In this document: piece after piece, positions 137 through 63,106 of the stretch
How positions within the stretch are numbered: the stretch's first letter is position 1
How the letters are laid out: the number at the start of each line of letters is the position of its first letter
Source: a virus
Direction: 5' to 3' (one strand)
DNA: 64,000 nt
Virus record (IMG/VR): IMGVR_UViG_3300023242_000001
Coordinates: 12,296 to 76,295 of that record
Program-made: the position numbers and the translations under genes
The notes under the pieces: generated by a model
Seen by the model: only the letters and a program-made list of their open reading frames with translations
Databases searched by the model: none
What the model was told of the DNA's origin: nothing

Positions 137-168
137 ATAACCGACCCCGCGCATTCCGCGCAAACCCC

Positions 169-202
169 GCCTCGATTGAGGCAATTTAAGGAGTCCCAAA
201 TG
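169..202 (+). promoter_or_regulatory. Early hairpin-RBS repeat, copy 1
   Basis: GCCTC-GATT-GAGGC, then AAGGAG, then ATG at 200. Confidence 0.75.
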
Positions 203-634
203 GGAACACGTTCCATCACGTCCGTCATCGAGAACGGCACCATCCTGTGCACCATGTACCGTCAGTTCGACGGCTACCCCAGCGTCCACGGGGCGGATCT
301 GCACAAGTTCCTCGCTGCTCTGACGCTGGTCAACGGCATCAGCAGTGCGGACAACCGCCGCATCGCCAACGGCGCCGGCTGCCTCGCTGCGCAGATGGTG
401 CACCACTTCAAGCAGACCTCAACAGATGCCCGCACATCGATGGCGGGCAACGTCTACATCACCGCGCCGCGCCTGAAGCTCGACAGCGAGGACTACGGCT
501 ACACCGTGTCGGTCGACGACAAGCTTCGCACCAGGATCAAGTGCTATGTGGTGGGGCACGGCAACGTCGACGACAGCATCTTCTGCGGAACCGTGGCCGA
601 GTTCGGCGAGTTCTGCGCGAAGGATGTCGCATGA
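200..634 (+). CDS. Hypothetical phage early protein
   Basis: MGTRS...YRQFDGYP motif; strong SD (AAGGAG) supports the start at 200 rather than 176. Confidence 0.75.
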   Translation: MGTRSITSVIENGTILCTMYRQFDGYPSVHGADLHKFLAALTLVNGISSADNRRIANGAGCLAAQMVHHFKQTSTDARTSMAGNVYITAPRLKLDSEDYGYTVSVDDKLRTRIKCYVVGHGNVDDSIFCGTVAEFGEFCAKDVA

Positions 635-846
635 GCGCCATCACCTACAAGCCCGAGGTCCGCGTCAACGGCAGCTTCCACAGCAACTCACTGGTGTTCG
701 CCACCCGCGAGGAGGCCGAGCAGTCGGCACGCGAGTTGATGGGCCGCTGGCTGCTGGTCACCGACTACCGTGCGGTCGAGTCGACCGACCCCGTCAACTA
801 CGCCCTCGTCGACGGCGATCTGCGTGCTGTGGAGGTGGCAGCATGA
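631..846 (+). CDS. Hypothetical protein
   Basis: MSAITYKPEV...; ATGA overlap with the upstream gene. Confidence 0.65.
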   Translation: MSAITYKPEVRVNGSFHSNSLVFATREEAEQSARELMGRWLLVTDYRAVESTDPVNYALVDGDLRAVEVAA

Positions 847-1034
847 GATTCGCCCAGACCTACTGCAGCCAGTGTGGCCAAGAGCAGGGCCCGGGTGACA
901 ACGGCGTAAGCCACTGCCGCGACCACCTCAATGCTCACGTCCACCCGGTGTTCCGAGACATCTTGTCGGGGTTCTTCACACCGCAGCCGACCCGCGCGCC
1001 GGACGAGCGCCCACAGCCAGGAGACATGACATGA
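843..1034 (+). CDS. Small CxxC-containing hypothetical protein
   Basis: MRFAQTYCSQCG; GGAGG SD; ATGA overlap. Confidence 0.55.
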   Translation: MRFAQTYCSQCGQEQGPGDNGVSHCRDHLNAHVHPVFRDILSGFFTPQPTRAPDERPQPGDMT

Positions 1035-1222
1035 GCTTCTCACCCCTGCCCTTTGATTACTCCCGGTGCCAGCCGCAGCCGGGGCCAGTGGCCAACTGCC
1101 GGGCCTGCGCCAGGTGGGCTGACCACCCCAAACAAGTGTGGGGTGAGCGGACCCCGTTCGAGAGCCTGGACCCGACCGGCCCACATTGCGACTTCACCCC
1201 CGCAGACACCAAGCACCGCTAA
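1031..1222 (+). CDS. Small Cys-rich hypothetical protein
   Basis: GGAG SD; C...CRACARW...C pattern. Confidence 0.55.
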   Translation: MSFSPLPFDYSRCQPQPGPVANCRACARWADHPKQVWGERTPFESLDPTGPHCDFTPADTKHR

Positions 1223-1229
1223 CCCACCC

Positions 1230-1263
1230 GCCCCGACTGGGGCATTAACCGGAGACCAAAGTG
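1230..1263 (+). promoter_or_regulatory. Early hairpin-RBS repeat, copy 2
   Basis: GCCCC-GACT-GGGGC, then GGAG, then GTG at 1261. Confidence 0.75.
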
Positions 1264-1584
1264 ATCAACCTCACCGACTTCACCGAGCGCATCGTCACGC
1301 TCAGCACAGCCCACATCCCCAAGCACACCGCTGCCGCGCTCGGCAAGTACCGCGAAGACTGCGTGGTGGCCGAGTTGTGGGGCCACATCCACTACGAACC
1401 CTGGGGCGACTTCGGCTGGATCATCTGGGCCAGTTCAGAGTGTTGCGAGGACGCCCTGGCACCCCACCCCGAACTGGCAGCCCTGATGGCCATGTGCGCC
1501 GAGCGGCGCATCCAGTGGCTGCGACTGGACTGCGACGCCCCGCCCCACCCTGAGTTGCCGACTTTTGAATGGGAGCCGACATGA
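1261..1584 (+). CDS. Hypothetical protein (LSTAH...LDCDAP type)
   Basis: TLSTAHI and WLRLDCDAP motifs recur in small phage/plasmid proteins; SD present. Confidence 0.65.
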   Translation: MINLTDFTERIVTLSTAHIPKHTAAALGKYREDCVVAELWGHIHYEPWGDFGWIIWASSECCEDALAPHPELAALMAMCAERRIQWLRLDCDAPPHPELPTFEWEPT

Positions 1585-1961
1585 ACTACATCAAGACCGC
1601 CGACGGCGAAATCTCCACCTTCGACATCTGCCAAGCCTACATGCAGCTGGAGTCCGACTTCAACGTCGACGGCTTGCTGCGTGAGCGCCCCAGCAACCAG
1701 CGCCGGCGCGAGTCGATCGGCTGCCAGCTGGCCCGCCTGAAGTTCAACCCCGGCATGCGCTGGGTTGACATTGTGAGCTTCGACAACGACGCCGACGACG
1801 AGGACGAAGACCGAGATGTGCGCTGGATCTACCTCAACAAGTTGATGGAGTGGGGGCTGCCCGCCGACGAGGGCCTGCTTGCCGCCATCAATAGGCTGTT
1901 CGTCCGCGACTGGCTCCTGGCCAACTTTCCCGCCTACGCCTGCACCGAGGTGGCGGCATGA
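1581..1961 (+). CDS. Hypothetical protein
   Basis: MNYIKTAD; GGAG SD; ATGA overlap. Confidence 0.6.
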   Translation: MNYIKTADGEISTFDICQAYMQLESDFNVDGLLRERPSNQRRRESIGCQLARLKFNPGMRWVDIVSFDNDADDEDEDRDVRWIYLNKLMEWGLPADEGLLAAINRLFVRDWLLANFPAYACTEVAA

Positions 1962-2194
1962 AGATGAATTTTTCCAGGGTCACGCGGCCGGGCCGAGCGG
2001 GAATATCCATGAGCCTCGGAGAGCTTGACGAGCATTTCAAGCTGAAGCCGGGCACCTGCTTTGGCAGCATCGTCAGGCCGGCCGAGGGGCTCGCCCCACC
2101 CAAGGCATCCAACTTGAACGCTTCGTCCGGCAAGAACCTGTACCGCGTCGGCGAGTTCCGCCAATATCTTCAACTTCGAGGAAAACTGCAATGA
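1958..2194 (+). CDS. Hypothetical protein
   Basis: Coupled overlaps on both sides. Confidence 0.5.
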   Translation: MKMNFSRVTRPGRAGISMSLGELDEHFKLKPGTCFGSIVRPAEGLAPPKASNLNASSGKNLYRVGEFRQYLQLRGKLQ

Positions 2195-2421
2195 CCATGA
2201 ACCCCTTCAAGAAACCCGACATCGCCCGCGTCCTGCAAGACCAGATCTACGAGGCGCAGCGAGCACTGATCGACGCCGCGGCGAGCACCGAGATGGCCCG
2301 CGCCCACCTTGAGCGGGCCCGTGCCAGTCAACTCTACTGCGAGACCCGCCTGACCACCCTGCGAGCCATGACCAAGCCCTGCCACGTGCTGGGCGCACTT
2401 TCATCACTGGAGTCAACATGA
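2191..2421 (+). CDS. Hypothetical coiled-coil protein
   Basis: GAGG SD; ATGA overlap. Confidence 0.55.
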   Translation: MTMNPFKKPDIARVLQDQIYEAQRALIDAAASTEMARAHLERARASQLYCETRLTTLRAMTKPCHVLGALSSLEST

Positions 2422-2699
2422 ACACGATCAAATTTTCCCTGCTCGCCACTGCGCTGGCCTTCGCCTTTTCCGCGCAGGCCGCACGCCCGTCTGCAGAGCT
2501 TCGCAAGACCTGCGCAGATCTGGGCGAGATAGCCACACAGCTTGCCGGCTTCAACCGAAGAGGCGTACCCATCGGCCAGGCTGTACGCCTCGTTCAGGGC
2601 GGCCCATCGATACTGCTCGACCTTGTCCAAGATGCCTACGCTTTGCCGATCAACCCCAACCCAACCCTCGACGCGAGAGCCGTGGGGAAGTTTGGGTAA
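2418..2699 (+). CDS. Hypothetical exported protein
   Basis: N-terminal signal peptide MNTIKFSLLATALAFAFSAQA. Confidence 0.55.
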   Translation: MNTIKFSLLATALAFAFSAQAARPSAELRKTCADLGEIATQLAGFNRRGVPIGQAVRLVQGGPSILLDLVQDAYALPINPNPTLDARAVGKFG

Positions 2700-2778
2700 G
2701 CTGCGGAAATCCTGGGCTTGAGGGGGCGCTGATCAGCTCCAAGAAGTCCACCCGACCACCTACATCTGAAAGCTGAAC

Positions 2779-3024
2779 ATGAAGACCAAATTCACCGTCG
2801 TGCTGATGCGCCCCGACTACCGCGCTGACCCGTACGGCCAGGACTGCTACGTCGCACGTGTCGAAGCTGTGAACGCCTACCGCGCTCGTGAGGAAGCCCA
2901 GAAAGAGGCGTGGAAGTACGACAACAAGGACCTTGGCGAGACGAGTGGCTTCTCCGACGACTACCACTCGCTCCTCGTTTTCGAGGGGCACCAGGAAGTG
3001 AAGCTGTTCGGCTTCCAGGCCTGA
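2779..3024 (+). CDS. Hypothetical protein
   Basis: ORF with phage-typical GC3 codon usage. Confidence 0.6.
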   Translation: MKTKFTVVLMRPDYRADPYGQDCYVARVEAVNAYRAREEAQKEAWKYDNKDLGETSGFSDDYHSLLVFEGHQEVKLFGFQA

Positions 3025-3059
3025 CCCAGACTAACCCCAGGCCGAAAGGCCATCAACCC

Positions 3060-3094
3060 GCCTCGATTGAGGCAACTTTCGGAGTCCAACTATG
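3060..3094 (+). promoter_or_regulatory. Early hairpin-RBS repeat, copy 3
   Basis: GCCTC-GATT-GAGGC, then GGAG, then ATG at 3092; preceded by a GGCC-GAAA-GGCC hairpin at 3040-3051. Confidence 0.75.
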
Positions 3095-3793
3095 GCAAAA
3101 CTCGCCAGGAATTACCACGCCCAACTGACCCTGAAGTCGGCCAACGCCAAGACCGGCCCAATACCCGTCAGCGTCACCGCCAGCGACAGCTGCCCGCCGT
3201 CCTGCTCCTTCATGGGCAACGGCTGCTACGCCGAGTCCGGCCCACTTGCCCTGCACTGGGCCAAGGTCAACACCGGTGAGCGCGGCATGCCGTGGCAGAT
3301 GTTCTGCGACGCCATCGACACGCTGCCGGCCAACCAGCTGTGGCGCCACAACGCCGCTGGCGACCTGCCCGGGCACGACAACGTGATCGACGGCGTGGCG
3401 CTCGGCATGCTGGTCAAGGCCAACGCCGGCAAGCGCGGCTTCACCTACACCCACTACCCACCCACGCCGGGCAACGTCAGCGCCGTGGCCATGGCCAACG
3501 CTGCCGGCTTCACCGTCAACTTCTCCGCCGACTCGGCAAGTGAGGCTGACGCGCTGTGCGACCTGGGCGTGGGCCCGGTCGTCTGTGTGCTCCCCAGCAC
3601 CCAGACAACGAACAGCAAGACGCCCGCCGGACGCAAGGTGGTGGTGTGCCCCGCCACCGTCCGAGACGACACCAGCTGCGCCGACTGCGGCCTGTGCCAA
3701 GTGCAGCGAGACACCGTGATCGGCTTCCCCGCCCACGGCAGCAGCTACCGCCGGGTCGACATCCGCCTGCTTTCCAAAACCCGCGTCGCCTGA
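3092..3793 (+). CDS. Cys-rich phage protein, possibly Fe-S or radical-SAM-like
   Basis: SCPPSCSFMGNGCYAE, RHNAAGDL, FTYTH and C-terminal CPA...CADCGLC motifs. Confidence 0.6.
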   Translation: MAKLARNYHAQLTLKSANAKTGPIPVSVTASDSCPPSCSFMGNGCYAESGPLALHWAKVNTGERGMPWQMFCDAIDTLPANQLWRHNAAGDLPGHDNVIDGVALGMLVKANAGKRGFTYTHYPPTPGNVSAVAMANAAGFTVNFSADSASEADALCDLGVGPVVCVLPSTQTTNSKTPAGRKVVVCPATVRDDTSCADCGLCQVQRDTVIGFPAHGSSYRRVDIRLLSKTRVA

Positions 3794-3803
3794 CGCATCG
3801 CCT

Positions 3804-3837
3804 GCCCCGATTGGGGCATTTTCAGGAGTTCAACATG
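3804..3837 (+). promoter_or_regulatory. Early hairpin-RBS repeat, copy 4
   Basis: GCCCC-GATT-GGGGC, then AGGAG, then ATG at 3835. Confidence 0.75.
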
Positions 3838-4293
3838 GCCAACAAATCAATCAGTCACAAGGCAGACGTCATCGACAGCCGCAACGTCATCGCCCGCATC
3901 GACGATTTGGGGGGTTCCTTTCAGGACGCCTACGACACCTTCGTCGAGGAGTACACCGGCCCAGGCGAGGCACTCCCTGACTTCGATGACTGGCTCACCG
4001 AGATCAGCCAAGCCGACGACCACATCGACCAGGACGACGCCATCGAGCTGATCGAGCTGCGCAAGCTGGCCACCCAGTGCGAGAGCTACGGCAGCTGGAG
4101 CAGCGGCGAGGAGTTGATCCGCCGCCGCCACTTCGTCCGGTACATCAAGGAGTGGTCCAGGAGCGTCAACGCTGTCTCTGACAACGACGACTGGCTCTAC
4201 AACCACATCGACTGGGACGCCGCCGCCGCAGAGCGTGAGGCCGACTACATGGAGGCCACCTTCAAAGGCAAGACGTTCCTGATGCGCGCTTGA
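3835..4293 (+). CDS. Acidic hypothetical protein
   Basis: MANKSISH start after AGGAG; IDWDAAA motif near the C-terminus. Confidence 0.65.
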   Translation: MANKSISHKADVIDSRNVIARIDDLGGSFQDAYDTFVEEYTGPGEALPDFDDWLTEISQADDHIDQDDAIELIELRKLATQCESYGSWSSGEELIRRRHFVRYIKEWSRSVNAVSDNDDWLYNHIDWDAAAAEREADYMEATFKGKTFLMRA

Positions 4294-4325
4294 CACCCAC
4301 CCCCAAACCACATAACACCCAACCC

Positions 4326-4358
4326 GCCCCGACTGGGGCATTCCAGGAGTCCAACATG
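4326..4358 (+). promoter_or_regulatory. Early hairpin-RBS repeat, copy 5
   Basis: GCCCC-GACT-GGGGC, then AGGAG, then ATG at 4356. Confidence 0.75.
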
Positions 4359-5387
4359 ATTTCCATCGAAACCCGCGACTACACCGGCGTCACCAGCGAG
4401 CAAGTCATCGCCGAGATGCTCAAGGAGAACACGGGAAGCGCCCTGTGCGACAGCGGCGGGGCTTACGGCCGCAACTGGTCGCGCAACGCCGGCCGCGACT
4501 TCGCCACCGACCCCAAGTGCACCACGCGCTGGGACGTGATCGAGACCGCCAAGGCGTCCCGCGTCAGCGTCTCCTCCACTGTAAGCCTCTACCACTGGAT
4601 GGTCGCCCACCTGGAGTTCGACGCCGAGCTGCAGCAGGATCTCGACACTTTCATGGCCGAGGAAGGGCTTGGGGACCTGGAGGCCGCCGACAACTTCGCC
4701 CAGCACCTGTTCGATGCCGAGCGGCTGGCCAGCGAGCCCTACTGCGTCAACACCTCCAACCCCGTAGACGACGTCAACCTCTCGCAAGTCTTGCAGTTCC
4801 ACGTCATCACCATCGACGGCGACTACGAGCCCACGCACCTGATCCTGACGGTGCACGGCGGCTGCGACGTGCGCGACGGCTACACCGACCCCAAGTGCTT
4901 CCGGCTGCGCACCGAGTACGACGAGGCGATGAGCAACGCCAGGGCCAGCTACCTGGTCGCCGGGGAAGATGGCTGGCACATCCCGGACGGTTGCTGGCGC
5001 GACATCGAGCGCTCCGAGCAGAACGCCACCGCTCACAGGAACCCGCTCGACCTGCCCGCCTACACCCCGCACAGCCTGATGCAGCGCGCCGAGGAAGAGT
5101 GGGACGTGCCCGAGGCACTGCAGGACCTGAAAGACATGCACGAGGCGATCTACCGGGGCGACCTCCAACTCAACCGCCTGAAGGCGCAGGCCACCCGCAA
5201 CCAACCCGAGGAGACGCTGCTTGAGCATCTGCAGGCTGGGCGCGACGAGATGAGGGAGAAGGTCTTCGAGGCCGTCGCCGAACTCTCCGAGGAACTTGCC
5301 GAGGACTTCATCTACGTCGAGGCCGGGCGCGCCTGGCTGGTGGTCGACGGATCTGCTGACGAGCTCAAGGTTGAAGTGAGCTTCTGA
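4356..5387 (+). CDS. Acidic hypothetical phage protein
   Basis: ENTG...DSGGAYGRNW and HGGCDVRDGYT motifs; AGGAG SD. Confidence 0.7.
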   Translation: MISIETRDYTGVTSEQVIAEMLKENTGSALCDSGGAYGRNWSRNAGRDFATDPKCTTRWDVIETAKASRVSVSSTVSLYHWMVAHLEFDAELQQDLDTFMAEEGLGDLEAADNFAQHLFDAERLASEPYCVNTSNPVDDVNLSQVLQFHVITIDGDYEPTHLILTVHGGCDVRDGYTDPKCFRLRTEYDEAMSNARASYLVAGEDGWHIPDGCWRDIERSEQNATAHRNPLDLPAYTPHSLMQRAEEEWDVPEALQDLKDMHEAIYRGDLQLNRLKAQATRNQPEETLLEHLQAGRDEMREKVFEAVAELSEELAEDFIYVEAGRAWLVVDGSADELKVEVSF

Positions 5388-10576: not shown

Positions 10577-13474
10577 ATGACGACACCGACATCAACCTTC
10601 TGGTTCCAGAGGGCTGGCGGCGAGGACGCGTGGCTGGAAGCCCCTGCGTCCCTTCGTTCCCAGGTTCTCAACGACACAAAGCCCGCATTCACCACCATCC
10701 TCGACGCCTTCAGTTCCCCAGACGAAAGCTGGGGCCGCGACGACTTCGCGGCCATGCGCTACATCGGACCGATGTACTTTGACTTCGACGCTGAAGACAT
10801 TGCGGACACCATCACAGCCCTCGGCGAATTTCTCGACAAGCTCGAAGGCTTCGGCGTCAACCTTGACGCGCTGAGGCTCTACGCCACCGGCGGACGTGGG
10901 TTTCACATCGAAATCCCCATGCCAGTGTTCGTGGCCAAGGCCCCGCGCAACGGCGTGCTGGGCATGCCTTACGTCTTCAAGGAAATCGCCTACGAGCTGG
11001 TCGTCGACACGCTGGACTTGCGGGTCTACACGGGTCGCAAGGGCCGCATGTGGCGCACCCCCGGCATTGAGCGCAGCAACGGCTTGTACAAGGTGCCGCT
11101 GACCACGGCGCAGGCCCGGGCGATGACGCCCGAGCTGTACGCCGAGCTGTGCGCCGCGCCGATCGCCGAGCCCAAGCGGGCTGACCCGACGCTCAACCCG
11201 ACCCTGGCCGCGATGTTCCTCAAGGCCGAGAGCAAGGTAGCCGAGGCTGGCAAGCGCCGAGCCAAAGCTGGCGGCGCCGACGAAGCGCTGCTCGCCAAGT
11301 TCAAAGGCCAATGGCCTGACACCGTCAAGATGATCATGGCCGGCGAGGGCCTGCTCGACAACGTGGGCTTTCACAAGATCGCCATGCAGTTGGCGATCAC
11401 CGCCAACGCTCTGGGCAAGACGGCCGACCAGCTTGTCGAAGAAAGCCGGGACCTCTGCAAGAACTACTCCGGCGACTCCGGGCGCTACGGCTCACCCCGC
11501 AAGCGCAAGGAGGAACTGCGGCGGATGTGGGATTACACCCACGACAACTTTGTCTACAGCTACTCCCGTGGCGGGCTGCGCGCGCTGCTCGGGCCCGACA
11601 CACCCTCCAGCGACCTCGACGGCGTCAGCGGCGCCGCGGTCAACCTGGGCAGCGTGCCGAGTTCCGACGACCTCGACGCAGACGTCGACGCTGAGACAGA
11701 AGCCGAGATCAGCTCAGCCCAAAACTCGCTGCTCGAGGGTTTGATGATCACCCGCACCGGCGTTCACAAGCGTACCGCTGAAGGTGTTCGCACCATCAGC
11801 AACATCGCTTTTGCTTCGCCCACACAACTGCTCGACCCCGAGGACAACACAGTGCTCGGCATCACCGCCGACGTCCTGTCCGACGGCGTGCGCCAGGGCC
11901 GCATCACGCTGGCCGGGCGCGCGTTCACCAGCCGCGCCAACCTGAGTGCTTGGTGCGCCAACTACGGCGGAGTCTTCTCAGGCTCCGATACCCAGGCCGG
12001 CGTGGTGCAGCTGTTGCTGTCCCGCGATGCCAAAGAAAAAGGACGTGTCATGTATGCACTTCGCAAAGAGGGCCTGGACGTCGTCCAGAACCCCTTGATC
12101 CCTGACCGCAGCGTGTTCGACGTTGTCTTCGTCCACCGCGACCGCGTCGTGTGCGACAACAGCGCCGCGCAGTATGTGTTCCAACCATTGGTTGCCGATG
12201 GCGCGCTGTTCCTCTCCGACGTGCACAACGCGCCGGAGATCACACGCACCGAGGAGACCGAGGCGTTCATCCACAACCTGCTTGACATGAACGACCCCTC
12301 GGTCGTCGCCCCCATGCTCGGGTGGTTCGTGAGCTGCTTTCACAAGCAGTTCTACCAGCGCGCGTTCAGCCAGTTTCCACTGCTGCACCCCAACGGCCCG
12401 GCCGGCAGCGGCAAGACTCTGACAGCGATGCTGATGGCGCGCTTGTTCTTCTTGAAGAACCCGGTGGCGATGAAGTCCTGTGCTTCGCACACCACCACCG
12501 ACTTCTCGCTCAAGTCGTTCCTGACCGGATCGGCCTCGCCACCGGTGCTGCTCGACGAGTACAAGCCCAGCGAGCTGATCCAAAAGCGGGTCGACCTGTT
12601 GCTGCAGTCGTTCCGGTTGGCCTACAACCAGGGATCAGGTTCGTCGGGCGGCATGTCTCGCGGCGGGGCCACAAGCTCCTTTCGCGAGGTGGCCGACTAC
12701 ACCTACTCGACACCGGTGTGCTTCATGGCCGAGAGCCAGGAGACGCAGACCGCGATCGTGCAGCGCTGCGTGCCGGTGTCGTTCAACCAGGTCATGTCCA
12801 ACGAGCACACGGCGCAGTTCAACGCCGTGAGTGACAAGGCCCACCTCATGGCCAGCCTGGGGCGCCTGATCCTGCGCTACTCCTACAGCGAGACGGTCGA
12901 GTCGCGCCACAGGGCGCTCTCCCCGGTGATCGACGCCCTGACCAAGACGCTGGATGCCAACGTCCACCCGCGCCAGATCTACAACTTGGCCGTGGTCACC
13001 GAGGGCATCAACTACCTCGAGCGCGTCCTGAAGCCGGTGTTTGGCGAGGCGTTCACCGCCCGGTTCGAGACCCTGCGCACCGCTCTGTTCGAGCACCGCA
13101 TGGAGATCAGCTCGGGCGTCATGTCCGAGGCCGCCAAGACGATGAACGACATCGCCTTGATCTCGCGCTCCGAGGACTTCGACAGCGAGTTCGCGATCCG
13201 CGAGGGTCACGAATACATCATCACCGACGGGCACATCGACATGCTGATGCGCGAGACGTTCGTGAAGTATTTCTCCTGGTGCAAGCGCAAGGGCTTTCCA
13301 CCGTTTTACCAATCCGTTGAGTCTTTTAGCGTGGCGATGAACAAGTTCCCGCCCACCAAAGACCGCACCTGTTTGACCTCTCCGCTTCGCAAGAGCGGGA
13401 AGTCAAAGATCTTCCGATTTAGCCTTGCCGGGCTGGGTTTGGAAGGAGTTGATGAGTTCAAGACGAAGGGGTGA
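10577..13474 (+). CDS. AEP-type primase/polymerase fused to a P-loop helicase
   Basis: YFDFD and TGGRGFH primase motifs; Walker A GPAGSGKT; Walker B LLDE. Confidence 0.85.
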   Translation: MTTPTSTFWFQRAGGEDAWLEAPASLRSQVLNDTKPAFTTILDAFSSPDESWGRDDFAAMRYIGPMYFDFDAEDIADTITALGEFLDKLEGFGVNLDALRLYATGGRGFHIEIPMPVFVAKAPRNGVLGMPYVFKEIAYELVVDTLDLRVYTGRKGRMWRTPGIERSNGLYKVPLTTAQARAMTPELYAELCAAPIAEPKRADPTLNPTLAAMFLKAESKVAEAGKRRAKAGGADEALLAKFKGQWPDTVKMIMAGEGLLDNVGFHKIAMQLAITANALGKTADQLVEESRDLCKNYSGDSGRYGSPRKRKEELRRMWDYTHDNFVYSYSRGGLRALLGPDTPSSDLDGVSGAAVNLGSVPSSDDLDADVDAETEAEISSAQNSLLEGLMITRTGVHKRTAEGVRTISNIAFASPTQLLDPEDNTVLGITADVLSDGVRQGRITLAGRAFTSRANLSAWCANYGGVFSGSDTQAGVVQLLLSRDAKEKGRVMYALRKEGLDVVQNPLIPDRSVFDVVFVHRDRVVCDNSAAQYVFQPLVADGALFLSDVHNAPEITRTEETEAFIHNLLDMNDPSVVAPMLGWFVSCFHKQFYQRAFSQFPLLHPNGPAGSGKTLTAMLMARLFFLKNPVAMKSCASHTTTDFSLKSFLTGSASPPVLLDEYKPSELIQKRVDLLLQSFRLAYNQGSGSSGGMSRGGATSSFREVADYTYSTPVCFMAESQETQTAIVQRCVPVSFNQVMSNEHTAQFNAVSDKAHLMASLGRLILRYSYSETVESRHRALSPVIDALTKTLDANVHPRQIYNLAVVTEGINYLERVLKPVFGEAFTARFETLRTALFEHRMEISSGVMSEAAKTMNDIALISRSEDFDSEFAIREGHEYIITDGHIDMLMRETFVKYFSWCKRKGFPPFYQSVESFSVAMNKFPPTKDRTCLTSPLRKSGKSKIFRFSLAGLGLEGVDEFKTKG

Positions 13475-30763: not shown

Positions 30764-30987
30764 GTCGGGCTCCTTGAGTGGGGTCCGATCGTACCCGAGC
30801 CGACGGACTCACAAAAAGTTACACAGAGCGGTGCCGACTCGCACCGACTTCTGGCATCTCCGCAGCGACTCCTGGCGAGCTTTGGCTCCCTGGGCTAGGT
30901 TCGCTCTGGCTCAGGGTCTTTACCAGTGGCAATTTGTCTGCAAGTCTGGTTCTCCACAAACGCCCCTCAAGAGGCATAGGAACCACA

Positions 30988-40820: not shown

Positions 40821-41717
40821 TTAGATGTCGCAGCGCAGGGTGCCGACAAACCACGTCCAGCCGGGGCCGGTATTCGCAACCGAGAACGGCGTAACCATGG
40901 GCATTGCCACCGGGTAGGTAAGGCCGTTGGATGCCAACACGCCTGATGCAGCCGACTGAAACATCGACACAGCCGACCCCGCCCGACGGGTCGCAATGTT
41001 GACGCCAGCAGAGGTGCCGTTTACAGTGCTCAGGCCGACCACGATGTATGAGCCAGCTGCGTTTAGTCCGGCGATTGCGCCCAAGGTGCCAGCAGATAGC
41101 GCGTACTGAGGCGCGGCGCGCATGGTGGTCAACGCGGTGGAAGATGCGGCAATAGCGGCGAGTGCTGTGTCGCTGTTAAATATCGACATCTTCGCTGTAC
41201 TGGATGCAGCCACCGCTGTCATGGCTGTGCTGGATGCAGCCACCGCAGTCATCGCCACGCTCGATGCAGCCACCGCTGCCATGGCTGTACTGGATGCAGC
41301 CACCGCTGTCATGGCTGTGCTGGATGCAGCCACCGCAGTCATCGCCACGCTCGATGCAGCCACCGCTGCCATGGCTGTGCTGGATGCAATCACCGCTGTC
41401 ATCGCTGTGCTGGATGCAATCACTGCATTCATCGCCACGCTCGATGCAGCCACCGCTGTCATGGCTGTGCTGGATGCAATCACCGCTGTCATCGCTGTGC
41501 TGGATGCAATCACTGCATTCATGGCCGTGCTGCTGGCGGCCACCGCTGTCATCGTCACATTGTTCGCCGTGATTCTTCGGACCTGCCCCGGAATCTCCAG
41601 CAGAACCTGCAATTCTCCCCGGCGCGAATTGTTCACCAGCAGCGTTTGCAGTTGCGCACCTGTGATGGTGCCGTTTTCGAGCGCATTCAACATGCGCATT
41701 GCTGAAATCATTGCCAT
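40821..41717 (-). CDS. Tail-associated protein with 10-aa repeats
   Basis: 12 copies of AM[TNA]AV[AI]ASS[TV]. Confidence 0.75.
   Translation of the reverse strand: MAMISAMRMLNALENGTITGAQLQTLLVNNSRRGELQVLLEIPGQVRRITANNVTMTAVAASSTAMNAVIASSTAMTAVIASSTAMTAVAASSVAMNAVIASSTAMTAVIASSTAMAAVAASSVAMTAVAASSTAMTAVAASSTAMAAVAASSVAMTAVAASSTAMTAVAASSTAKMSIFNSDTALAAIAASSTALTTMRAAPQYALSAGTLGAIAGLNAAGSYIVVGLSTVNGTSAGVNIATRRAGSAVSMFQSAASGVLASNGLTYPVAMPMVTPFSVANTGPGWTWFVGTLRCDI
41196..41555 (-). repeat. 30-bp tandem repeat x12 with a 90-bp higher-order period
   Basis: Units such as ATGGCTGTGCTGGATGCAGCCACCGCTGTC on the plus strand. Confidence 0.95.
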
Positions 41718-62163: not shown

Positions 62164-62667
62164 TCAGGTTGTGCGCCCAAACTCACCGTGCAGGCGCTTG
62201 CTGGCTTCGCAGTAAGCTGCGTGAGCGAGTTCGGCGGTGTCGTGCCGCCCTAGGTACTGACTCTTGCCGCCTGCTCCGATGGTTGCCGACCACCCTCCGT
62301 CGCGCTTGCACCAGCTCACTCCCTTCAGGCCGCTCGTGTTGAGCCGGCTGAGCCCCTGGTTTTGGCTGTTCTGGGCTCTGGTAGCTAGGCGCAGGTTCGC
62401 TTGGCGGTTGTCTAGCCCGTCGCCGCTGATGTGGTCGACGTGCATCTCGGCAGGGGCCGCCAGTAGGGCTCGGTGCATCAGCACCATACGCTGCTTTCCC
62501 CCGGCCTGTTCGGTGCGAACAGCATACACGCCGTGACGTTGGGCCAGCGCGTACCAGTTAAACCCCTCCGCCAGAGGCAAGTCAGCCGCGTCGATCGCTG
62601 CCACGAAGCCCTGGGTCAGCGTGACGAACGCGACAGCACCTTCGACACGGATTGGTCGCACCTTCAT
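62164..62667 (-). CDS. HNH endonuclease with AP2 domain
   Basis: MHR...VDHISGDGLDNRQANLR, SGLKGV and YLGRHDTAELAHAAY. Confidence 0.88.
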   Translation of the reverse strand: MKVRPIRVEGAVAFVTLTQGFVAAIDAADLPLAEGFNWYALAQRHGVYAVRTEQAGGKQRMVLMHRALLAAPAEMHVDHISGDGLDNRQANLRLATRAQNSQNQGLSRLNTSGLKGVSWCKRDGGWSATIGAGGKSQYLGRHDTAELAHAAYCEASKRLHGEFGRTT

Positions 62668-63071
62668 TTCGGCACCTTCGCCCGGGCTTCCTTGATCCGC
62701 CTTGCAAGCGTTCGGTACTCCGTGCCCGGGTGGGCCTTGCAGATTGCGGTGACCGAGAAGGCGGGGCGCGCCAGGGCGTCAGCCACAGCCCTGGCATAGG
62801 CTGGGTTGAGGTCCGGCTTGAACCAAGCGCTCTCTGGGGGCCTGCTTTCGTTGATTTTTGCCTCTCGCAACTTCTCGACCAGGTCGCACCGGCGCAGGCG
62901 CACTGAGAGTTGTGACTTCGTGATGCCGAGGTCGCCACAAATCTTGTCTCGCGTGGTCTCGTTGGCGAACAGCCGCCTGACGTGCTCTTGAAACTCGGGG
63001 TCGGTCAGCCACTTTGATGGCGGGCCGGACTTGAGCTTGTCCTTGACGGGGGTTTGGTTTGGGTTGTTCAT
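62664..63071 (-). CDS. HTH DNA-binding protein, leaderless (repressor/regulator candidate)
   Basis: RDKICGDLGITKSQLSVRLRR HTH; ATG 6 nt downstream of a -10 box. Confidence 0.6.
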   Translation of the reverse strand: MNNPNQTPVKDKLKSGPPSKWLTDPEFQEHVRRLFANETTRDKICGDLGITKSQLSVRLRRCDLVEKLREAKINESRPPESAWFKPDLNPAYARAVADALARPAFSVTAICKAHPGTEYRTLARRIKEARAKVPK

Positions 63072-63077
63072 GCCCGC

Positions 63078-63106
63078 ATTGTACACACGCAATTGCTACG
63101 TGTCAA
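63078..63106 (-). promoter_or_regulatory. Sigma70 promoter (leftward)
   Basis: TTGACA-17-TACAAT, with TG immediately upstream of the -10 box. Confidence 0.85.

Follow-up and report, generated by a model that had tools for sequence, protein, structure and literature searches.

A short leader hairpin is repeated in front of the early genes of this phage; the repeat is real, uncatalogued and more extensive than first noted. The window (the whole analysed stretch of 64,000 nucleotides) begins at base 12296 of a 76,295-bp virus record, a 76-kb temperate siphovirus of freshwater bacteria with a long early arm. Seventeen co-oriented hairpins of the + strand, each with five Watson-Crick pairs and a RAYT loop, all lie at genome 961-16634. 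They occupy the first 22% of the genome (the first 16.7 kb) and only the coding strand. The same hairpin pattern occurred once elsewhere on the + strand and once on the − strand, and shuffles gave 0.84 per strand. Our leading but tentative explanation is an RNA leader, through which every block of early genes would start translation in a standard, insulated way and which would probably also offer a handle to one factor.

Early 'accessory' genes are the site of host-takeover and anti-defence functions of phages, and the joint expression and shut-off of dozens of unrelated small early genes is poorly understood. Start-associated repeats have been known in mycobacteriophages since 2011, but a mechanism is lacking. 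The present system is cleaner, as it combines a tiny hairpin, abundant natural compensatory changes and a fixed gap to a uniform ribosome-binding site (RBS). Clade-specific loops in four related lineages and a probable cultivable host genus, Hydrogenophaga, are further assets. These properties make the question directly testable.

Module architecture and the five window copies

The leader module is about 45 nt long. It begins with AACCC, followed by a 5-bp GC-rich stem with a RAYT loop closed by C-G; the 3' half consists of A, about six G-poor bases, GGAG, TYCAAC and the start codon. Inside the window, GCCYCGAYTGRGGC was found at 169, 1230, 3060, 3804 and 4326, all on the + strand, with 0.01 expected from shuffles. 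The sequence-only reading had described these sites as hairpin-plus-RBS elements, and the description holds. In each copy the stem is followed by A, 6-7 nt, GGAG, 6-7 nt and ATG/GTG, placing the start codon 16-18 nt past the stem, and a CCC run precedes four of the five. The swap between T-A and C-G at stem position 4 had also been read correctly, and the extra hairpins reported 5' of copies 1 and 3 are present (149-161 and 3040-3051), with a third one at 3783-3796. The features are listed below in window coordinates, with bit scores from a covariance model of the element.

149-161, + strand: variable hairpin upstream of module 1, GCGC-ATTCC-GCGC
162-202, + strand: leader module 1; flank AAACCCC, hairpin 169-182 GCCTC-GATT-GAGGC, A and a 6-nt spacer; 28.9 bits
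190-202, + strand: RBS end of module 1; GGAG 190-193, TCCCAA, ATG 200-202; heads a 144-aa early gene
1223-1263, + strand: leader module 2; flank CCCACCC, hairpin 1230-1243 GCCCC-GACT-GGGGC, GGAG 1251-1254, GTG 1261-1263; 31.3 bits
3040-3051, + strand: variable hairpin upstream of module 3, GGCC-GAAA-GGCC
3053-3094, + strand: leader module 3; flank TCAACCC, hairpin 3060-3073 GCCTC-GATT-GAGGC; 30.0 bits
3081-3094, + strand: RBS end of module 3; GGAG 3081-3084, TCCAACT, ATG 3092-3094; heads a DUF7227 gene
3797-3837, + strand: leader module 4; flank CGCCT, hairpin 3804-3817 GCCCC-GATT-GGGGC; 25.1 bits
3825-3837, + strand: RBS end of module 4; GGAG 3825-3828, TTCAAC, ATG 3835-3837
4319-4358, + strand: leader module 5; flank CCAACCC, hairpin 4326-4339 GCCCC-GACT-GGGGC; 33.2 bits
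4346-4358, + strand: RBS end of module 5; GGAG 4346-4349, TCCAAC, ATG 4356-4358

The hairpin at 149-161 is not kept in relatives; it may have arisen as a tandem copy of the element that decayed. Module 2 heads a DUF5983 gene as well as a block of genes that overlap. Upstream of module 4, the stop codon of the gene before it falls within the additional hairpin (3783-3796). Module 5 is the final copy in the genome and heads a 343-aa gene conserved in relatives, with an orthologous copy in L009; the replication module downstream of it is without any element. The 'degenerate copy' proposed near 30962 was not upheld. Its stem contains a C·A mismatch, its loop is TCAA, its box is AGGA instead of GGAG, and it gave no covariance-model match even at E ≤ 10.

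Covariation of the stem

A set of 47 distinct copies, drawn from this phage, a Hydrogenophaga prophage and metagenome contigs (about 12 contigs overall), contained 17 different fully Watson-Crick stems. C-G closed the loop in 46 of 46 copies, and the loop was 4 nt long and RAYT in all 46 copies of the clade (GATT, GACT, AACT or AATT). Two imperfect stems carry U·G, which the opposite strand would read as C·A. In a pairing-blind sample of GGAG starts with an ORF of at least 50 codons after them, 33 of 49 starts with the TYC box had a perfect stem (5 bp or longer) whose end lay 3-12 nt upstream, compared with 11 of 99 box-less starts. RNAalifold, applied to 19 leaders picked by the box alone, returned the same five pairs, four of them with compensatory double changes. 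The selection on pairing proposed earlier is strongly confirmed, and both conservation and covariation reach the relatives. In a MAFFT alignment of all four clades the loop lengths were out of register and RNAalifold gave no pairs, while the within-clade fold worked.

The element hairpin was the centroid fold in all five window copies, leaving GGAG and AUG unpaired. Single-sequence folding z-scores were unremarkable (−0.25 to −2.9). A double-stranded DNA operator, another of the earlier suggestions, is improbable, given that the sequence of the arms is not conserved but covaries and that two stems contain G·U.

Several other readings of the conserved parts were rejected. Seven different stems occur among the 17 copies of this single genome, so CRISPR-repeat mimicry was discarded. 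The conserved blocks were also compared by eye with the consensus spacings of sigma-54, ECF-type and sigma-70 sites, and GTYCAAC with an integron attC; these readings were dropped, as either spacing or repeat symmetry did not fit. For pairing of the loop with AGUC of GGAGUC, as a pseudoknot or alternative fold, loop base 1 and the box Y covaried unconvincingly: A-loops were paired with a TTC box in 5 of 7 cases, and G-loops were split about evenly. Pairing of all four loop bases with the box is sterically implausible. A search for phage RNA complementary to the box found none, the sole complements being the antisense of the elements themselves.

Position relative to gene starts

Across the four lineages the gap from hairpin to GGAG was 5-10 nt with a mode of 7, a tight spacing of 7±1 nt. 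The GGAGTYCAAC box stood 0-3 nt before ATG/GTG. The distance from the upstream stop codon to the hairpin was variable, from 8 to 200 nt; in two copies the hairpin overlaps the end of the upstream ORF and is translated as part of it. The hairpin lies at about −31 to −18 relative to the start codon, which is the outer edge of the stretch covered by the 30S subunit. It belongs to the translation-initiation region of the downstream gene. In both large genomes the element-headed blocks consist of genes joined by −4/+1 overlaps. Improved RBS accessibility in element-headed genes was considered, and no difference was seen (predicted values of 0.54 for these genes and 0.60 for others).

Distribution in related phages

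The element was found in four phage lineages, this temperate phage and at least three related ones, with 12-19 copies per genome. The nearest prophage relative is in Hydrogenophaga, and the host family is probably Comamonadaceae. Distant relatives with 47-54% primase identity retain the AACCC flank, the hairpin, the spacing and the GGAGTYCAAC box, but their loops differ (RCNTT and RNTTT, 5-6 nt). Some leaders of relatives keep the box and have no hairpin; the hairpin is therefore not strictly required. Among GenBank phages there were no close relatives, and terminase and primase were about 25-28% identical to those of Vibrio SHOU24-like phages and of Pseudomonas PMBT3, Lana and UAntarctica. 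The scan of species-representative genomes with the strict hairpin-plus-box pattern gave 12 single matches, only one of them, on a 2.5-kb MAG contig of Opitutaceae, with a paired stem. The matches in this set included none from Hydrogenophaga or Comamonadaceae, so host genes apparently do not use the module.

Possible function and alternative explanations

As an RNA leader, the element would stand before every block that has its own translation start. The blocks consist of small early genes, most of which overlap and would be translationally coupled, and they would sit on the rightward early transcript or transcripts of the phage. The module could then be a context-independent ribosome entry site of standard form, in which the stable hairpin would wall off upstream sequence and the G-poor spacer would keep GGAG and AUG unpaired. 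The invariant parts (CCC flank, closing C-G, loop and 3' A) may form a sequence-specific, clade-dependent handle, through which a single factor from phage or host could turn all early blocks on or off jointly. Judged from sequence comparison, the element would act as RNA, on translation or mRNA fate, with a trans factor. Among the roles listed in the sequence-only reading, translational control is our first choice and RNA processing or stabilisation our second; both are viable.

A more specific possibility, which we consider rather unlikely, is that loop, closing pair and flanks are an address label for one dedicated RNA-binding regulator or nuclease. Its reader would most likely be phage-encoded and co-evolve with the loop (RAYU in this clade, RCNUU and RNUUU in the sister clades), although the clade-specific loops could come from within-genome copying rather than from co-evolution with a factor. 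If an address label is correct, about 15 early blocks would form one post-transcriptional regulon under joint on/off control. Such a system would be comparable to T4 RegA/RegB or the Aca proteins, but addressed through a hairpin, and would travel with any gene gaining the leader. A dedicated reader would represent a new regulator class and supply a ready-made part for insulated multi-gene expression. Pfam searches of 30 early proteins gave three DUF families only and no candidate RNA-binding regulator; an 85-aa early protein common to three lineages was considered as reader and had no informative relatives.

The early transcript might instead be cut at the element, for example by RNase E in an A/U/C-rich spacer or the AACCC flank, with the hairpin then shielding one of the fresh ends, either the 3' end of the piece before the cut or the 5' end of the piece after it. 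We hold this to be unlikely. The element is intercistronic and strand-specific, its stems covary, and the spacer is U-rich in lower-GC relatives (AATTTTA, ATTTTT, ATCTTTT), all of which agree with cutting. So does the lack of any sigma-70-like promoter at genome 1-18500 in a consensus scan alone (shuffles expect 2.9), which suggests a long polycistronic RNA across these 18.5 kb. However, cutting or stabilising needs neither tight RBS spacing nor a conserved loop, a 5-bp stem is much too short for RNase III, and many spacers of this phage are not A/U-rich (ACCAACC, ATGAACT). Furthermore, 65.7 kb of early regions from 8 sources gave no Rfam match at E ≤ 0.1, hence no ribozyme or known RNA family in these slots. 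The fixed GGAG distance is also left unexplained by a signal at the level of transcription, such as a pause site, a weak terminator or a nut/boxB-like loading site for antitermination, and we regard such a signal as improbable. The GC-rich 5-bp hairpin followed by A superficially resembles lambda/P22 boxB, the phage is temperate with a long early arm, T-runs occur at some copies, and one of the 17 copies was flagged as terminator-like. Against this, the U-tract is inconsistent (the 7-8 nt after the stem always start with A and hold 1-6 T), and the early region has 17 terminator-like sites compared with 15.7 in shuffles. The boxB-like role suggested earlier does not stand: the loop is a 4-nt RAYU rather than a GNRNA pentaloop, there is no boxA-like flank, and 17 copies per operon contrast with the usual 1-2. 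No Pfam family of N-like arginine-rich antiterminators was found in the 30 early proteins, where a small divergent N could escape detection. Highly improbable, in our judgement, is a promoter of the N4 type, in which an extruded DNA hairpin is read by a dedicated polymerase and each block is its own transcription unit. Its logic fits insofar as variable stem bases are free if paired (PMC4496689), the element stands just 5' of each block, and the 18.5 kb are without sigma-70-like promoters. The N4 promoter, however, has a 3-nt loop with a central purine at −11 and occurs as three promoters at the genome end (PMC4496689), while the loop of the element measures 4 nt in this phage and 5-6 nt in relatives, and the copies number 12-19 per genome. 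If transcription began about 11 nt from the loop centre, only 1-3 nt would remain ahead of GGAG. The N4 virion RNA polymerase has a T7-like catalytic domain and about 3500 aa; the largest ORF here is a 2062-aa tape measure protein, and the single-subunit RNA polymerase domain PF00940 had no match in the 76-kb genome, nor in the control genomes.

The repeats had also been proposed as homology units for gene shuffling, and this claim stood in part. Nucleotide homology to close relatives starts at the element in three comparisons, at genome 8645 (L050/L067), 12461 (L072/L079) and 7013 (L092), and gene neighbours are reshuffled around it among relatives. One exact 36-bp element pair flanks a two-gene block, the genome stretch 4571-4660 carries tandem 'empty' leaders with a 6-codon stub, and the phage encodes SbcCD-like nucleases. 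That the repeats are mainly short homologies for early-gene exchange between related phages, a role proposed for the PeSLs of T4-type phages, nevertheless has a low probability. Copy pairs within a genome share a median longest identical run of 7 nt, with at least 20 nt in only 7 of 134 pairs. A recombination substrate would need the reverse of the observed stem diversification, which cuts homology yet keeps pairing. Of 9 early genes common to the phage and the prophage relative, just 3 are element-headed in both, genes also move without the element, and strand bias and RBS spacing are left unexplained. The shuffling of genes at elements is likely a side effect.

Comparison with known systems

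The MS2 coat protein operator hairpin includes the start codon, and T4 RegA sites are unstructured. The hairpin here would share with RegA one putative factor acting over many early messages. In T7, RNase III sites between the early genes are imperfect duplexes of about 20 bp or more. Like them, the element is a structured signal punctuating a long early transcript, but its stem is 5 bp, extension is blocked by the C/A flanks, and the distance to the RBS is fixed. The lambda/P22 nut boxB is a GC-rich hairpin in which the loop and some stem bases are read and others need only pair. The element resembles boxB and the N4 promoters as a 5-7-bp GC-rich hairpin with partly free stem bases, and differs from a lambda-type nut in its 5' flank, which is AACCC rather than a CGCTCTTA-like boxA, and in its 17 copies in one arm.

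The Aca1/Aca2 5'-UTR RNA motifs of acr-aca operons are protein-bound translational operator hairpins (PMC13551039). The present element may likewise be a small hairpin beside the RBS of early or anti-defence genes that a phage protein reads so as to set translation. Unlike it, the Aca motifs number one or a few per element and also serve as DNA operators.

The closest analogues are the SAS/ESAS repeats of mycobacteriophages and the PeSLs of T4-type phages, SAS/ESAS being an analogue and not a homologue. SAS of Cluster K mycobacteriophages has the consensus GGGATAGGAGCCC with at most two mismatches, and ESAS are 17-bp imperfect inverted repeats (PMC3203893; PMC12699233). As in SAS, a short asymmetric conserved sequence containing the RBS stands a few bp upstream of the start codon of a subset of genes in the non-structural half; here this is the GGAGTYCAAC box, which is confined to the + strand and to the early 16.7 kb. 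The two systems also share 11-19 copies per genome in one orientation, a motif that differs between subclusters, and, as with ESAS, an inverted repeat directly upstream of many copies. The box differs from GGGATAGGAGCCC, with no sequence similarity. In ESAS each arm is a half-site of 17 bp that follows a sequence consensus, and the spacer varies, whereas the arms here are 5 bp, sequence-free except for the end pairs and strictly covarying, around a conserved loop. The hosts are Actinobacteria for SAS/ESAS and probably Comamonadaceae here.

PeSLs consist of a strong sigma-70-like promoter and an effective terminator stem-loop and coincide with insertion, deletion or replacement joints between related phages (PMC2839356; PMC4122927). 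Both PeSLs and the present element are small repeated regulatory modules between ORFan early genes in plastic regions. In the element, neither a promoter-like site nor a consistent U-tract was found; what is conserved next to its hairpin is the RBS. As to joints, three homology blocks of close relatives start at an element, but genes also move without it and the copies share little identity. The element may mark the plastic joints of the early region, which would be useful in annotating uncultured phage genomes.

Copies and anatomy of the leader module

The 14-mer GCCYCGAYTGRGGC is present five times in the window against an expectation of 0.01, at the coordinates where the sequence-only reading had placed five hairpin-plus-ribosome-binding-site copies (window 162-4358). 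On recheck its spacing to GGAG and the start codon, its CCC flank, and its two upstream hairpins were all correct; the degenerate copy proposed at window 30962 was not supported. The five window copies are the visible part of a larger element family. With a genome-wide definition of only five Watson-Crick pairs around a RAYT loop, the whole virus record (genome, or L008, coordinates) held 17 elements on the + strand, all within genome 961-16634 and 12 of them upstream of the window. Outside this region each strand had a single match, and shuffles gave 0.84 per strand.

Seven stems occur among the 17 copies (GCCCC, GCCTC, GGTGC, GGCGC, GCGCC, GCACC, and GTGCC). Their consensus is (stop codon)...AACCC, G-NNN-C, RAYT, G-NNN-C, A, about six G-poor bases, GGAG, TYCAAC, and ATG or GTG. 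The stem's closing C-G pair never varies, the outer G-C pair and the A on the 3' side of the hairpin hardly do, and the three middle pairs are free in sequence. The hairpin lies 5-10 nt from GGAG (mode 7) in all four lineages, and 8 to 200 nt from the upstream stop codon; in two copies it falls within the end of the upstream ORF. As the GGAG distance is fixed and the stop-codon distance is variable, the hairpin is part of the downstream translation-initiation region, not of the upstream gene's 3' end.

The phage record and its relatives

The window covers bases 12296-76295 of the record, whose full length is 76,295 bp. The record is that of a temperate siphovirus, and it encodes a tyrosine integrase. 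Its other main genes are arranged as follows:

− strand: terminase, portal, and 2062-aa tape measure protein
+ strand: ligase, helicase, primase, DNA polymerase, SbcCD-like nuclease, thymidylate synthase, and dNMP kinase

IMG/VR classes the record as having direct terminal repeats; because its shared ends amount only to a 21-bp microsatellite overlap, we read it as a circular assembly. Phages in GenBank are distant relatives only (terminase and primase about 25-28% identity). The record starts with a CTGCCC/CTG microsatellite, and between this start and the first leader module a stretch of about 850 nt without ORFs and with lower GC (L008:100-950, upstream of the window) may be the site of one or more early promoters, of an origin, or of a structured RNA. 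Farther on, L008:1530-1910 and 4840-4910, which lie within the first early genes, carry a GACCTG microsatellite together with CCCCGACAACGTC / GACGTTGTCGGGG motifs that recur in both orientations. In the late region, a 30-nt unit repeated head-to-tail in 12 copies inside a − strand ORF (window 41104-41612) probably codes for a repeat segment of a fibre-like structural protein. An HNH-AP2-type endonuclease gene and a gene for a 142-aa helix-turn-helix protein, both on the − strand, lie upstream of the large terminase (window 62164-63092); the helix-turn-helix protein may be a small terminase and not a repressor. Rightward ORFs begin at window 63217 with one that is rich in alanine, reaches the window end, and extends into the terminal microsatellite.

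Relatives were sought by a pattern scan for the module. The provirus G001 (46 kb, extended by a 51-kb metagenome contig) carries 9-10 co-oriented copies in its early 18 kb, with the loop GATT and the stems ACAGC, GAGCC, CGAGC, GGCCC, GCCCC, GCCTC, and GGGCC. About 12 short metagenome contigs contributed the stems GGGTC, GCTGC, GCAGC, and GGACC and the loop AATT. Replication genes common to G001 and the window phage are 55-65% identical in amino acids; few early genes are shared, and their order differs. G001 ends with an integrase adjoining tRNA-Cys, tRNA-Gly, and a lon gene (L049:2410-6452), and a tRNA gene is likely its attachment site. The host of G001 is Hydrogenophaga, because the adjacent lon protein is 100% identical to that of Hydrogenophaga sp.; the window phage probably infects a related member of the Comamonadaceae.

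More distant relatives were located through their primase (47-54% identity). Two contigs, one of 71 kb and a complete one of 81 kb, have 12-19 leaders each. In these the AACCC flank recurs, followed by a GC hairpin, the spacer ACAACYTT, and GGAGTYCAAC-ATG; the loop is RCNTT in one contig and RNTTT(T) in the other. The box and architecture are thus family-wide and the loop clade-specific.

Pairing of the hairpin

This genome, G001, and the metagenome contigs together yielded 47 distinct copies, among which 17 different stems are fully paired. Two further stems contain G·U (GGTGC/GCGCC and GTGTG/CACGC), and internal A·C did not occur. Copies were initially chosen for perfect pairing, and pairing-blind tests were therefore added against circularity. 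In four early regions, sites were anchored solely on GGAG, the TYC box, and a start codon that opens an ORF of 50 codons or more. A perfectly paired stem, 5 bp or longer and with its end 3-12 nt upstream, was found at 33 of 49 box sites, compared with 11 of 99 GGAG starts without the box, a noisy control set that includes internal sites. For 19 box-selected leaders of the two closest genomes, RNAalifold predicted exactly the five pairs, with compensatory double changes in four of them. Selection on pairing, proposed from the five window copies, is strongly borne out, and extends to relatives, by the 17 fully paired stems of this phage and its relatives and by the compensatory changes. The hairpin has about −10.7 kcal/mol and single-sequence z-scores of −0.25 to −2.9; as these thermodynamics are unremarkable, the evidence for structure is comparative.

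Role of the leader module

In this genome and in G001, the element heads blocks of 1-11 small genes linked by −4/+1 overlaps. It sits exactly where translational coupling breaks off, and its copies end ahead of the replication module. It is followed by ORFans: Pfam searches on 30 early proteins found only DUF6876, DUF5983, and DUF7227, and the sole PHROGs match outside families of unknown function was an HNH endonuclease. This HNH gene (PHROG 374) lies without a leader of its own in an AT-richer island (48% GC; L008:3240-4436) between leader-headed blocks, and is probably a mobile homing gene.

The element would most likely act as an RNA leader, a standard and insulated ribosome entry site for each gene block. 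This is suggested by its strict co-orientation with genes, the G·U pairs, its presence where coupling is interrupted, and the G-poor spacer, which in the predicted fold leaves GGAG and AUG unpaired. We hold this RNA and translation-start reading, with its inferred mechanism, tentatively, as close to an even call. Invariance of the CCC, the closing pair, the loop, and the 3' A goes beyond the needs of a mere structural wall and, together with the clade-specific loops, suggests a sequence-specific reader of the hairpin; no candidate was identified among the early proteins examined. Alternatively, the loop pattern may reflect copying within genomes instead of co-evolution with a reader.

Other kinds of signal fitted less well. 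A consensus scan of 18.5 kb found no sigma-70 promoter, and a polymerase-specific promoter was rejected as no T7-like RNA polymerase domain was found, although control genomes also gave no match. The bases after the stem start with A and hold 1-6 T, a number that follows GC content and is not conserved, so a canonical terminator was rejected; terminator-like sites were at shuffle level. The stem of only 5 bp spoke against an RNase III site. The boxB-like role once considered for the element fails on loop size, the lack of boxA, and the 17 copies. No trans-encoded complement in the genome pairs with the element, and a species-representative scan of host genomes showed no use of it. Rfam gave no match (E ≤ 0.1) in 65.7 kb of early regions from 8 sources. 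The element is a real, conserved, structured leader module of a known kind, itself so far uncatalogued.

By analogy, the nearest described system is SAS/ESAS of Cluster K mycobacteriophages, which shares a conserved sequence including the ribosome-binding site, often an upstream inverted repeat, one orientation, location in the non-structural half, and subcluster-specific variants. However, the sequences are unrelated, and the ESAS arms are conserved half-sites whereas the stems here covary. SAS/ESAS function was still unverified in 2025 (PMC3203893; PMC12699233). PeSLs of T4-type phages lie at cassette joints (PMC2839356; PMC4122927), as the element here may do, but consist of a promoter and a terminator. 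In N4 hairpin promoters, too, some stem bases are read and others only paired (PMC4496689), but these need a polymerase of a type not found in this phage. Aca proteins, which bind 5'-UTR hairpins, show that repression of early or anti-defence genes by a phage protein can work through such RNA structures (PMC13551039).

Possible gene exchange at the module

The first reading had also offered the copies as homology units for gene shuffling, and this stood in part. In three comparisons with close relatives the element marks the start of nucleotide homology, several contigs have different gene neighbours on its two sides, and one exact 36-bp pair flanks a two-gene block. Two tandem pairs and a 6-codon stub resemble emptied slots:

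L008:4564-4660: tandem leader-hairpin pair, followed only by the 6-codon stub and about 280 nt of non-coding sequence
L008:4921-4988: tandem leader-hairpin pair

However, the copies have a median of only 7 identical bases in a row, and of 9 early genes common to this phage and G001, only 3 have the element at their head in both genomes. We therefore read gene exchange as a by-product or secondary benefit of the shared leader, rather than its primary function.

In a metagenome relative (L092:427-1030), two copies of segments match genome 8190-8410, just upstream of the gene at genome 8406, with 76-91% identity. The L092 stretch matches a G001 early protein twice in tblastn, side by side, and so probably holds a duplicated gene.
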